NCBI RefSeq assembly: GCF_965641715.1 | Contig: NZ_OZ282453.1 | From: Escherichia coli | GTDB taxonomy: Bacteria > Pseudomonadota > Gammaproteobacteria > Enterobacterales > Enterobacteriaceae | Reading direction: 5' to 3' (one strand) | DNA: 64,000 nt | Shown: piece by piece, positions 37,735-40,794 of the stretch | Position numbering within the stretch: position 1 is the first letter of the stretch | Layout: every line of letters starts with the position of its first letter | Made by a program: the position numbers and the translations under genes | The notes under the pieces: generated by a model | Told to the model about the DNA's origin: nothing | Seen by the model: only the letters and a program-made list of their open reading frames with translations | The model's database searches: none

Positions 37735-39864
37735 ATGGCACAGTTTAAAGTTGATAGTTTTATCGTTGAGCTAGGCTTCAGCGAGAACGTTATTAAGGGC
37801 TTGCAAAGAGTTGAAAAGGCAGCTTTGCAGTCAGCACAAAGAATTGAGCGTAATTTGAATAGAGCGTTTAAGGTCGATACCAAGCAACTTGACAGCAATT
37901 TAACGGCTTCTTTGAAGTCAATGGAAGGAAAAATTAATAAGACCTTTGACCGTCTGGAAGCTAGAGCAAAAAATACTAAAGCTTTCCAGTTTACCACCAG
38001 ATTTAATGACACTGTTAATCCTCCAAAACAACCGAGACAGCCACGAATTAGCGGCAACAGAGCAATCACAGCAGCTTACTCAGCGAATATGAGCAAGTTA
38101 AAGGGCTTTGACCCTATTTTGCAGAAATACATCAAATCTCAGTTTTACGGGCTATCTGCTAAAGCTGGGTCAATGGATAACACCAAGTTTAATGAAGCCC
38201 TTGCTAAACTAAATTCAAGTGTAAGAGAAGCAATTGCTAAAGCTAAAGGTCATACATCCACCAGCATTAACGGTGACAGAGCAGCTAATAGTCTTGATAA
38301 CCTGTCTTCAGCGGCGGTTAAAACAGCAGGTGCATTTATCTCAATGCAGGCTGTATTAGCCAGTTATCAGAAGATTATGGAGGTTGGTTTACAGCGTGCA
38401 AGTGCTGAGCGTTCAATTGATTTCGTATTTGATAAAGATGCAGGTCAGGTAAAAGAGTTCACAAAGTCATTAGCTCAAACAACGGGTTTAGATATCGCTG
38501 AACTGCAATCACAGTTTGCTGGTTTCGGTGCTTCAGCTAAAGAGTCTATGGGTATTCAAGGTTCTGAAGAGCTTTTTAGAAATATGATTGGCTATGCTCG
38601 TTTAATGGGTCGAAGTGAAGAAGAGATTAAGCGAGCACTGACAGCATTATCACAGATGGCTGGTAAGGGTCAGGTTATGGCTGAAGAGCTTAAGGGGCAA
38701 CTAGCTGAAGCTGTTCCTGGTATGGTTCAGGTATTCGCTAAAGCAACCGGAAAGAGTGAACAGGAATTATTTGATGCCATGAAGAAGGGGGCTTTAAAAT
38801 CTGCCGATACTCTTCAGAAGGTCACTCAGGAACTGAATAGACAAATCACCGCTAAAGGTGGCTGGAAAGCTATTTCAGAAAGTACACAGGCACAACTAGG
38901 GAACTTGAAAAACTCTTGGAATACCACGCTTGACAGTATTTTCAGAGGTTCTGAAGATGGTTTACAGGACTTCACAAGAAGCTTAACCAATCTTCTAAAC
39001 GCTCTTGGTGGAACTGGTAAAACATTAGGTGAAAGTTTTGGTAGCTTGATGAGCGATATGTCACATGGTATCGATTCATTGACTGATATCTCTTACAGGG
39101 TACGAGGTTTCTTTGATGAGGTGACATTAGCTTACCGTTCACTAAATGACACTCAGAAAAAAATTGTTGATGGTTTATCTGATGGGTTAATTGATGGTTT
39201 GAAAATGCTTGCCGTAGCTGTTACTGCTCAAAAGGCTGCAAATGTAGCTGGAGGCTTGTTAAACCTTGCAAACGCTGTTACTTCATTCGGTGACGCTGTT
39301 AATAAAGCTAAAGCTGGCAAGGCTGGTTCTTCAGGTGGTGCGCTAAGTAAAGTCGGTAGAGTTGTCCTTTATGCTGAGTTGGTAAACTTTGCTCTTGATA
39401 ATTTAAACCCTGAAGCAGCTAAGAATCCGAACTTACATCAATCAGGTATTGGAACAGAGACAAACTTCAACCCTGAATACAAAGGCGATTCTACACCAAA
39501 CCAAATTAATGATGGATGGGCTAAGATTGGTAGTTCTATCGCTGACTGGTTTAATGGTGCGGCTAATAAAATTGCTAACTTCCAAGAGCCAATGAGTAAC
39601 CTTGTTAATAACACACAATCAACTCCACCAGCTATTACAGGTGACATGGTTAATAGCAATGCTCAACTTGCAATGGCTATTAGTGAACTATCACGTAAGG
39701 TTGATGCTTTAACAGCAGAATCTAAGAAGCCCTTGTCACTTAATATCAAAGGTGAAGCAATTGTTAGACCGGATGAACCAGCTTTCTTTACTTTCAATCA
39801 ATCAGCTAATGACCAGTTCACGCAGGATATGCTCTTAAGTTCAAGCTATCCAGAGGAAGAATGA
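37735..39864 (+). CDS. phage tail tape-measure-domain protein (709 aa)
   Basis: Central segment GKGQVMAEELKGQLAEAVPGMVQVFAKATGKSEQELFDAMKKGALKSADTLQKV matches the conserved tape-measure domain; Gly/Ala-rich C-terminal half; RBS gaggtg. Confidence 0.55.
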   Translation: MAQFKVDSFIVELGFSENVIKGLQRVEKAALQSAQRIERNLNRAFKVDTKQLDSNLTASLKSMEGKINKTFDRLEARAKNTKAFQFTTRFNDTVNPPKQPRQPRISGNRAITAAYSANMSKLKGFDPILQKYIKSQFYGLSAKAGSMDNTKFNEALAKLNSSVREAIAKAKGHTSTSINGDRAANSLDNLSSAAVKTAGAFISMQAVLASYQKIMEVGLQRASAERSIDFVFDKDAGQVKEFTKSLAQTTGLDIAELQSQFAGFGASAKESMGIQGSEELFRNMIGYARLMGRSEEEIKRALTALSQMAGKGQVMAEELKGQLAEAVPGMVQVFAKATGKSEQELFDAMKKGALKSADTLQKVTQELNRQITAKGGWKAISESTQAQLGNLKNSWNTTLDSIFRGSEDGLQDFTRSLTNLLNALGGTGKTLGESFGSLMSDMSHGIDSLTDISYRVRGFFDEVTLAYRSLNDTQKKIVDGLSDGLIDGLKMLAVAVTAQKAANVAGGLLNLANAVTSFGDAVNKAKAGKAGSSGGALSKVGRVVLYAELVNFALDNLNPEAAKNPNLHQSGIGTETNFNPEYKGDSTPNQINDGWAKIGSSIADWFNGAANKIANFQEPMSNLVNNTQSTPPAITGDMVNSNAQLAMAISELSRKVDALTAESKKPLSLNIKGEAIVRPDEPAFFTFNQSANDQFTQDMLLSSSYPEEE

Positions 39865-40020
39865 TTTAACGGTGTTCTACGTGAATAAAGCAAAGTTAAT
39901 ACCCACACCAAAAATTATTTTTCACGTAGCTCACGCTTAACAGAGAAAATACATATATATCAAAGGCTTGGTTAAAAATGATTAAAATACACTAAGCCTT
40001 TGAAATCAAAGGAGAATTTA

Positions 40021-40794
40021 ATGATTTTTAGCAATCAAATCCGCTACAGTGGCAAAGATGGCATCTATTTCCACTTAAGAGATAATGTAGATGCCTTCTT
40101 AACCTTATCAGCAACTGAAAACATGGAATTTGACAGTCCTATGCAGGTGACTACACAGAACATGCAATCAGGGCAAACCGTCACAGATAATGTGCAAAGA
40201 GCACCCAGAACAATCACTATTAGTGGTGTCGTTGTAGTTGGCTATGAAGGAAGCTTATTATTAACTCGTCAGGGTCAATTAGTAGAAAACTTCATTGACA
40301 CTCTTGAAAGCTGGAGAGACCAGAAACAAATTATTTCAGTGATTTGTAAAGATGGTATCAAGATTGATGACTCAATTATTACCAACTTTAAAGCCTCTAA
40401 AGATGTTACTATCTCTAACGGTCTTCGTATCCAGCTAACTTTTCAGGAAATTAACTTCAAAGCCATTGTAGGGCAAACTGATGTTTCAGCAGCTACTGGC
40501 AAAACTGCTACCACTAATGATGGTGGTGCTACCAGTAAAAAGAATGCGGGTAACGTGACTACTGAACGCAATAACGCACCTATGTTGATGTGTCAGGAAC
40601 TGTATAGCTACTCAGCATCTGAGCTATCTGATGAAGCGCTAAGGGTCCGTAGCAATTGCTCTAAAAATGTCACGGTGAAAGATGGTGTAAGCACCTTCAC
40701 AGCCTCAGCTAATGAGCAGGCTTCAAAAGTGCTTAAGTCGGGTAATGCTTTACGGAAGTTTAGTGTGAATCCGAATAAGAAGGGCACTTATTGA
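40021..40794 (+). CDS. hypothetical protein (about 258 aa), possibly tail-associated
   Basis: ORF after the tape-measure gene; start placed at the internal Met with RBS aaggag; function not recognisable from sequence. Confidence 0.4.

Follow-up and report, generated by a model that had tools for sequence, protein, structure and literature searches.

A satellite-like integrative element of Escherichia coli with tape measure and tube initiator genes related to those of Felix O1-like phages

Here we describe an element of about 11.5 kb in an Escherichia coli chromosome, found in a stretch of 64,000 nucleotides from contig NZ_OZ282453.1 (assembly GCF_965641715.1); this whole stretch is called the window below. 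The element encodes a tape measure protein (TMP) and a tube initiator (TI), and these are its only recognisable virion genes. We consider it probable that it is an intact, mobile, satellite-like element partnered with virulent Felix O1-like myoviruses, and that it retools the interior of the helper's tail. From its sequence we infer that the element may depend on such a helper, be packaged by it and place its own TMP and TI in virions.

Identity and origin of the two tail proteins

The two genes lie next to each other in the window (aa, amino acids):

37735..39864, plus strand: tape measure protein (TMP), 709 aa, identified by Pfam, NCBIfam and PHROG profiles
40018..40794, plus strand: tube initiator (TI), 257/258 aa, homologue of Bas63 gp18, identified by Dit_like, PHROG 3721 and gp18 homology

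The original prediction held that the 709-aa protein carries a tape-measure core, and profile searches confirm it. Pfam TMP_3 matches residues 234-400 (independent E-value 3.2e-20), NCBIfam TIGR02675 (tape_meas_nterm) scores 49.8 bits, above its curated cutoff of 21.35, and PHROG 4036, "tail length tape measure protein", matches residues 175-709 through to the end of the profile (E 1.7e-82). Position and size agree with this identity, as the gene lies directly 5' of the TI gene and members of the family are 682-710 aa long, compared with 742 aa for the TMP of phage Bas63. The role of the protein inside a tail, where it would set length, is predicted from these similarities.

The neighbouring 258-aa protein had been noted only as lying downstream of the TMP gene. 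It is recognisable as a tube initiator, by Pfam Dit_like (1.1e-19) and by PHROG 3721 over its full length (1.9e-133). Its ORF (open reading frame) has three candidate starts, TTG at 40000, the codon at 40018 and ATG at 40021, which give 264, 258 and 257 aa; the 257-aa form is the PGAP call in relatives. By tblastn, it shares 77-78% identity along its whole length with a protein found in about 300 phage records, all of them Ounavirinae, the strictly virulent myovirus subfamily that includes Felix O1 and Bas63. The match to Bas63 gp18 (77% identity over 258 aa) links it to a tube initiator that is structurally defined. In the cryo-electron microscopy structure of Bas63, gp17 is the TMP and gp18 the TI, a hexameric adaptor between the threefold hub and the sixfold tube, with a C-terminal extension of about 100 aa running through the baseplate (PMC12609058). 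In the matching Ounavirinae, the gene for the TI homologue is directly 3' of the TMP gene, the same order as in the element. The TMP-TI pair are thus orthologues of Felixounavirus gp17-gp18 with their order kept and, judged by sequence, derive from a contractile-tail (myovirus) module rather than from a siphovirus.

The other ten proteins of the element gave no capsid, portal, terminase, tube or sheath match in scans of PHROGs, NCBIfam, Pfam and PADLOC. That the element has no recognisable major capsid, portal, terminase or tail tube gene, and that the pair stands beside no other recognisable virion genes, holds as originally predicted. Absence of most virion genes is one of the features by which satellites are recognised.

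Phage-type ends and private interiors

Overall identity of the element TMP to phage TMPs is about 32%, and it is unevenly spread. The N-terminal ~45 aa are conserved with Felixounavirus gp17 (36 of 50 residues identical), as are the last 13 residues, EDxLLSSSYPEEE, while the body between them is only about 15-30% identical to gp17. The last 25 residues of the TMP touch the hub and the puncture apparatus in virions of Bas63 (PMC12609058). The TMPs of the family are 32-60 aa shorter than that of Bas63, which predicts tails shorter by one or two discs, as estimated from the dimensions of Bas63, whose tail has 26 discs. For the protein of the window, 33 aa shorter, the estimate is about one disc less.

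In TI the pattern is the other way round. Its tube-like domain (window 40036-40554, 519 bp) has 92.3% nucleotide (nt) identity to Bas63 and 91-94% to 212 Felixounavirus records, EC106 being the best match. The C-terminal arm of about 85 aa is specific to the element family, except for its last 10 residues, which are shared with the phage. When the element proteins were compared by tblastn with the whole Bas63 genome, matches were to TMP and TI only. Taken at the level of sequence similarity, the surfaces that dock in the virion (the TMP termini, the TI tube domain and the TI C-terminal tip) are of phage type, and the TMP body and the TI arm are private to the element.

The partner indicated by TI differs among copies of the element, which we denote by locus numbers. 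The TI of the window, L001 and L004 is nearest to Felixounavirus, and that of L006 and L013 is nearest to Suspvirus, another genus of Ounavirinae (70% and 60%). For this gene, some copies of the element are closer to a phage than to each other. These affinities indicate repeated exchange with, or selection by, different phage partners. A second feature by which satellites are recognised, matching to a specific helper, is thus found in the TMP ends, in TI, and in homology to the boundary and interior of a phage terminal repeat, described below.

Integration, excision and circular forms

The element is bounded by the following features:

30984..30990, strand not applicable: attL core GTGCTTT, the left junction, with wrbA codons 1-8 of the host on its left
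40814..42457, minus strand: large serine recombinase (integrase), 547 aa, annotated as "recombinase family protein"
42509..42539, plus strand: new 5' end of wrbA supplied by the element, followed by attR core GTGCTTT (42533-42539)

The surrounding gene order, rutG-ymdF-[island]-wrbA-yccJ-agp-yccE-cbpA, is that of an Escherichia chromosome, and the flanks of the island are 96.7-98.4% identical to K-12. The element itself spans window positions from about 30991 to 42532 and is inserted in codons 6-8 of wrbA. When the sequence is aligned to the empty K-12 site, the two junctions share a 10-bp overlap of K-12 bases, and the attL and attR (attachment site) junction sequences are the same in L001 and L002. 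K-12 WrbA begins MAKVLVLYYS; here this start is replaced by codons derived from the element, which restore the frame. The wrbA gene thus stays intact and acquires both a start and an upstream region from the element. The 547-aa homologue of the recombinase in L021, which has about 93% nucleotide identity to the window here, carries the Pfam Resolvase and Recombinase domains.

We predicted attP by joining the element ends through the core and searched for the resulting 32-mer. The junction is present in three metagenome contigs, from ERZ506742, ERZ506766 and ERZ1744498, and the attP pattern had no match in viral_contigs. In ERZ506742, the 11,233-bp contig NODE-633 holds only DNA of a related element, with attP mid-contig and a terminal overlap of 55 bp, which indicates a circular form. 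In ERZ1744498, the 23,009-bp contig NODE_469 (L028) holds two 100%-identical head-to-tail copies joined by attP with a period of 11,477 bp, and one of its ends just enters the wrbA flank; it represents an integrated tandem, or else circular and integrated forms together. The doubling may be genuine, as a tandem dimer or concatemer, or may have arisen from an assembler going round the circle twice. If it is genuine, a packaging unit of 2 x 11.48 kb would be noteworthy. These contigs prove excision or multimerisation, as distinct from packaging.

Both integration and excision rely on the large serine recombinase that the element encodes, and both take place at a 7-bp core in wrbA. With its att core, recombinase, attP and circle, it is discrete and has its own means of integration and excision, which is a third property of satellites.

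Non-coding DNA shared with phage genome ends

Near its left end the element contains four non-coding features of interest:

30991..32596, plus strand: left non-coding region of about 1.6 kb, with no ORF of at least 60 aa
31750..31905, plus strand: module with homology to the direct terminal repeat of Felixounavirus at its right boundary (blastn)
33453..33520, plus strand: 68-nt patch like the terminal-repeat interior of some Felixounaviruses (blast matches)
33575..33751, plus strand: two 83-nt direct repeats, 90% alike, with 94-nt spacing, a candidate binding array

Felixounaviruses have direct terminal repeats by PhageTerm (PMC11737134), and such repeats have been inferred for Felix O1 (PMC3185647). 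Window positions 31750-31905 align with 71516-71671 of Bas63 (blastn E 2e-9), including an exact stretch of 25 nt. Across a 2.3-Gb phage collection the module was found in Felixounavirus only, in 32 records and always in unannotated DNA. The genome of SeKF_63 has an exact 613-bp repeat at both ends, whose right boundary reads ...GGGCTACC up to the repeat end and AAGCAG beyond it; NBEco005 has a terminal repeat of about 651 bp with its boundary at the homologous position. In both phages the right boundary falls in the middle of the module, equivalent to about 31800/31801 of the window.

It is at this point that the module is most conserved. The boundary block, GGGTACTTAGCAG at window 31794-31806 with the consensus GGG(C/T)TAC(C/T)(A/T)A(G/A)CAG, shows little or no variation across five diverged elements and two phages. 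The exact 25-mer shared with Bas63 does not occur in other copies of the element within 3 mismatches, although the region is still 79-84% conserved. The 68-nt patch is 91% identical to NBEco005 at 242-307 and again at 87863-87928, 100% identical over 51 nt to NBEco004 and 94% identical to EC106; it is missing from Bas63 and from some copies of the element.

Homology to the boundary of a terminal repeat points to hijacking of packaging. Satellite P4 carries a copy of the cos site of its helper P2, so that the helper terminase packages the satellite. By analogy, we infer that the DNA shared here could be a mimic of the site at which the helper's packaging machinery recognises or cuts its own genome.

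The whole left non-coding region is dense in short degenerate repeats (CTGTGAAG / CTGTTAAG type) and is 79-91% conserved among copies of the element. In Bas63, a gene-free region of 1.66 kb (70493-72154) holds the terminal repeat and is packed with short degenerate repeats (CTTGTTAG, CTGTTAAG, CTATAGAG), and the two regions are alike in texture beyond the 160 nt that can be aligned. The 83-nt direct repeats are conserved in other copies of the element, and a shorter third, partial copy lies at 31132-31179. A measure of 6-mer density across the window, meant to capture likeness to the phage non-coding region, was dropped as confounded by A+T richness.

Distribution and selection

Two further genes of the element are needed to describe its family:

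36708..37418, plus strand: 236-aa signature protein (p236), which defines the family
37438..37653, plus strand: 71-aa protein directly 5' of the TMP gene, in a position kept in all copies

The p236-TMP-TI region is present, always in the chromosome, in at least 500 of 5,426 complete E. coli genomes, a figure that is possibly a lower bound, and members of the family also occur in E. albertii and Salmonella. Integration sites number at least four: wrbA, yecE (split by the insertion), lafU/dinB and mdtG/lpxL; the copies at each site have a serine recombinase of their own. In every context examined the gene order is constant, over 11-12 kb. It starts with accessory genes (a small resolvase, an AP2 protein or a Dam-like methyltransferase), about 1.5 kb of non-coding DNA and a divergent membrane-protein gene. 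Genes for a 185-aa (or RepA-like) protein, a 92-aa protein, a 71-aa protein, an HNH protein and a protein of about 107 aa follow, and the order ends with genes for proteins of about 236 and 70 aa, TMP, TI and the serine recombinase. Most copies have the recombinase at the end nearest TI; in L005 it lies at the other end of the element. No additional virion genes were found in any copy examined.

The three large genes (p236, TMP and TI) are intact across copies at 25-90% protein identity. Ratios of non-synonymous to synonymous substitution rates (dN/dS) are 0.21-0.47 for p236, 0.17-0.37 for TMP and 0.09-0.22 for TI; the genes of the family are under purifying selection. In a minority of copies the insertion sequences IS3, IS2, IS5 and IS21 interrupt the TI or TMP gene (for example L002, NZ_CP109924, 11398-13476), so individual copies are being inactivated though the family is under selection.

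These patterns bear on whether the element is a cryptic or decayed prophage, that is, the last piece of the tail module of a temperate phage, left beside an integrase and now functionless. Such an origin would suit a low-G+C island beside a recombinase and the breakage of TI or TMP by insertion sequences in some copies. Counter to this, all copies examined, from four or more loci, share one gene order over 11-12 kb, none of them has further virion genes, and the ORFs are intact and under purifying selection (dN/dS 0.09-0.47) across roughly 50-75% protein divergence. In addition, the att junctions are exact, circular and tandem forms exist, and within the phage collection both the TI relatives and the closest TMP relatives are confined to virulent Ounavirinae. 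Decay of a prophage is already largely refuted by these observations, and we give it almost no credence. One of the two explanations first offered for this DNA, that it is the remnant of a siphovirus tail module, is likewise rejected, given the myovirus gp17/gp18 orthologues, the clean att sites, the presence at four or more sites, the purifying selection, and the excised and tandem forms.

Another alternative is that an integrative element took the TMP and TI of a phage as passengers by recombination, or uses the pair for something unrelated to phage particles. Arguing for this case, the nucleotide-level patches show recombination with phages, and most core proteins are without an assignable function. 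However, the TMP body is not phage-like in its DNA and is ancient in the family, at about 32% identity to every phage TMP, and the TMP-TI pair is the most constant feature both of this family and of an unrelated one. Nor would dN/dS of 0.1-0.37 be expected of passenger DNA. We therefore regard passenger capture as very improbable, if somewhat less so than decay.

A putative satellite of Ounavirinae

Our favoured interpretation is that the element is a satellite of Ounavirinae. Infection by a matching phage would trigger excision and replication of the element, in some variants with the help of a RepA-like initiator. The helper terminase would then recognise the terminal-repeat mimic, and the element would be packaged in heads made by the helper. 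During assembly of the helper's hub and tube, the TMP and TI of the element would replace gp17 and gp18, giving a tail whose interior is specified by the satellite; p236 and the 71-aa protein encoded upstream of TMP would perhaps assist the entry of TMP and TI into assembly. This exchange might provide the element with its own DNA-delivery device, spoil tails for the 87-kb genome of the helper, or do both. The TMP of T4 forms a DNA channel in the inner membrane, and Imm blocks entry by binding TMP; HK97 gp15 is proposed to block entry likewise, via TMP (bioRxiv 10.64898/2026.03.06.709160). A private TMP body could thus let satellite particles escape entry blocks.

A TMP-like protein acting on the tail assembly or ejection of a helper was the second explanation first offered, and it is the best-supported option. 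It needs amending in that the helper is likely to be a virulent member of Ounavirinae rather than a resident or lambdoid phage, and in that the TMP is paired with TI. A second module of the TMP+TI type, in an unrelated family linked to a different virulent myovirus lineage, argues that the module is functional.

Several points weigh against a satellite of Ounavirinae. Induction by phage, DNase-protected element DNA and the presence of TMP and TI in particles are predictions, and the case that a TMP and TI of its own would benefit the element is made by analogy. The three metagenome contigs come from samples of unstated type, and the circle could be the product of spontaneous excision without packaging. 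Matches in IMG/VR are in contigs which, by identifier alone, look like isolate genomes (prophage predictions). A search of the element for a counterpart of the left terminal-repeat boundary found none. Profile scans recognised no replication initiator in the copy in the window. Finally, no gene for redirecting capsid size was identifiable, and the fit of an 11.5-kb genome in a head made for about 87 kb is unexplained.

Some of the same gaps suit a defence-only island, which would be mobile through its recombinase and not transferred in virions. TMP and TI would then act as dominant-negative subunits: their conserved ends would let them enter the hub of the infecting phage, their foreign body and arm would make the tails non-functional, and the dead tails would protect neighbouring cells. 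Phage-type docking ends combined with divergent interiors suit the design of a poison subunit, no capsid-size or packaging gene is recognisable, and a small HNH nuclease is present. There is also overlap between satellites and defence islands, PLE being both (PMC13060381). Nevertheless, defence alone leaves unexplained the homology to the boundary and interior of the terminal repeat, the replication initiators of variant copies, and the way a single architecture has reached at least four sites and more than one species. A poison subunit needs no two co-adapted proteins conserved over about 50% divergence, and no PADLOC defence model matches any core protein. We see defence-only function as unlikely, but as the most serious of the alternatives.

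Within the interpretation as a satellite, a more speculative proposal is that the private tail interior works like a colicin-immunity pair. Satellite particles would deliver their DNA via a channel that the helper does not use, and a 62-aa membrane protein, expressed divergently while the element is integrated, would block the helper-type TMP channel only. We put this forward tentatively and think it unlikely. If it were true, the family would combine an entry-level defence against Felix O1-like phages with satellite transfer that escapes this defence. It would be the first satellite to replace the DNA-delivery device of a helper rather than its capsid, and the unrelated family, which is linked to Stephanstirmvirinae, would be a second, convergent instance.

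Other genes and signals of the element

The remaining features of the element are as follows:

32597..33265, plus strand: accessory Dam-like N6-adenine methyltransferase, 222 aa, with a C-terminal helix-turn-helix (PHROG 111, 2.2e-24)
33872..34060, minus strand: conserved 62-aa single-pass membrane protein (tblastn; Kyte-Doolittle peak 2.2)
34300..36121, plus strand: first half of the core operon (ORF calls)
34300-34857, plus strand: 185-aa protein
34858-35136, plus strand: 92-aa protein
35136-35351, plus strand: 71-aa protein of the core operon
35348-35635, plus strand: 95-aa HNH_3 endonuclease (PHROG 99, 2.7e-8; Pfam HNH_3 in relatives)
35792-36121, plus strand: 109-aa protein

No family match was found for p236 in Pfam, PHROG, NCBIfam or PADLOC. 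The family is a narrow one: its 3,125 clusters at 90% identity reduce to 18 representatives at 50%. An AlphaFold2 model (pLDDT 81) has a long antiparallel helical hairpin and a small alpha/beta domain; fold searches returned no significant match and generic coiled coils only, and the fold is not that of HK97. Many NCBI records name the protein "transposase", but it has no transposase domain or family match, and the label is probably a propagated mis-annotation. The 71-aa protein encoded at 37438..37653 had no family match in PHROG or NCBIfam. In Bas63, gp15 and gp16 are tail-assembly chaperone genes placed 5' of the TMP gene, and p236 and this 71-aa protein are placed where phage chaperone genes sit; this is a purely positional argument.

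The first gene of the core operon is more informative in other copies. In L013, L025 and L029 it encodes a winged helix-turn-helix replication initiator (PHROG 270/428/8102, Pfam HTH_36). The 185-aa protein of the window fills the same slot; searches assigned it to no family, and its AlphaFold2 model (pLDDT 57.7) was too poor for a fold search. For the 95-aa HNH endonuclease, accession WP_000805963.1 is common to L002, L004, L005 and L006 though the neighbouring genes differ by 10-25%, and L001 has a 90-aa HNH protein in a different order. Comparison of these sequences suggests either strong constraint or recent independent spread of the gene.

The 62-aa membrane protein is found in 10 of 12 element loci, and its N-terminal 29 aa are invariant except at one V/I position. 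It is a candidate superinfection-exclusion, toxin or maintenance protein. Its gene has a promoter-like site on the minus strand (34216..34187, 11/12 positions, with TG) that faces away from the core operon, which has a promoter-like site of its own at +34223..34251. The methyltransferase also matches the PADLOC orphan methyltransferase (7.4e-9), with Pfam Dam in relatives, and is missing from some copies (e.g. L001). Apart from this orphan methyltransferase, no PADLOC defence model matched the proteins of the element.

Counts of promoter and terminator signals equalled those expected from shuffled sequence, and we note only the divergent pair at 34187-34251 and a site at 36212-36240. The latter (TTGACA-17-CATAAT, 11/12 positions, with TG) lies between the 109-aa and 236-aa genes, and a terminator-like hairpin follows about 230 nt later, at 36474-36496. 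This gap (36212-36496) could hold a small RNA or an internal operon boundary. An Rfam scan of the element gave no family at E <= 1, and a tRNA scan of the window found none. Outside the element, other stretches of low G+C are seen at window 1-4000 (0.35-0.38) and at 44001-46000 over yccE (0.40).

Significance

A search of the literature turned up no paper that connects a phage satellite to Felix O1, Felixounavirus, Ounavirinae or Bas63. The element seems, on sequence grounds, to represent a satellite-like family not described before, whose cargo is unusual and which carries a putative mimic of a terminal repeat. Felix O1-like phages are classic phages for typing and for biocontrol or therapy of Salmonella and E. 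coli. Carried by about a tenth of complete E. coli genomes, the element family could influence the efficacy of phage therapy and the transfer of genes, provided that these phages are what it is tuned to. Moreover, the 13-nt boundary block is a candidate for the sequence that Ounavirinae recognise or cut in packaging.

The satellites known so far either remodel capsids or supply them. If true, a satellite that supplies a tape measure and a tube initiator would be a new class of helper manipulation, and also a natural system for probing the part played by the body of a myovirus tape measure in DNA entry.

Comparison with known satellites

The nearest relatives of the pair are gp17 and gp18 of Felixounavirus, for example in Bas63 (MZ501086), where they stand among about 20 other virion genes; in the element they are chromosomal and alone. 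Among satellites, P4-like elements are similar in size to the ~11.5-kb element. Unlike it, they have a temperate helper, a tyrosine integrase, capsid remodelling (Sid, Psu) and no tail part, and they use a cos site, whereas the sequence shared here is the boundary of a direct terminal repeat.

In lifestyle, PLE of Vibrio cholerae is the nearest counterpart to have been studied experimentally. It too is a small island with a large serine recombinase, a strictly virulent myovirus partner and few structural genes (for general properties see PMC10448857). Modular initiators of RepA_N type and genes of nuclease families are further points in common. The likeness is organisational only, as the host and the helper lineage differ (ICP1, compared with a match to Ounavirinae here), and induction, replication, capsid remodelling and transduction have been shown experimentally for PLE, whereas the present element is known from sequence. 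To our knowledge, PLE has not been reported to encode a tape measure or a tube initiator. The capsid-forming PICIs (cfPICI) resemble our element in supplying part of the virion and taking the rest from a helper (PMC10448857). They make heads and borrow tails, in contrast to the present family, which would make two inner parts of the tail and borrow everything else.

As a precedent, nothing comes closer than the 224 putative E. coli satellites, linked to Justusliebigvirus, that Barth, Nguyen and Seed predicted in 2023 (PMC10448857), likewise by bioinformatics only. These are also integrative elements of about 10-14 kb in E. coli. One example (NC_018658.1, 4140183-4165443) has a long non-coding stretch and small resolvase, then small genes, and then a small gene, a TMP, a "baseplate" protein and an integrase at the end. 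The TMP/baseplate pair again matches a virulent myovirus lineage, the baseplate protein of the example matching Stephanstirmvirinae at about 53%. Some members have a serine recombinase, and their RepA-like initiators belong to the same PHROG families as those of variants of the present element.

In other respects the two groups are distinct. The partner is Justusliebigvirus/Stephanstirmvirinae for the published satellites and appears to be Ounavirinae here; the published satellites have major capsid and decoration genes, which are missing in the present element, and most use a tyrosine integrase at a tRNA-Thr site. When our element was compared with the example region, blastn found no match and blastp nothing significant for any of the protein pairs, and the element falls outside the published membership rule of at least 10 kb of BLASTn homology to representatives. 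By these comparisons, the present element belongs to a separate family, which has come to carry the same kind of TMP+TI module for a different lineage of virulent myoviruses.

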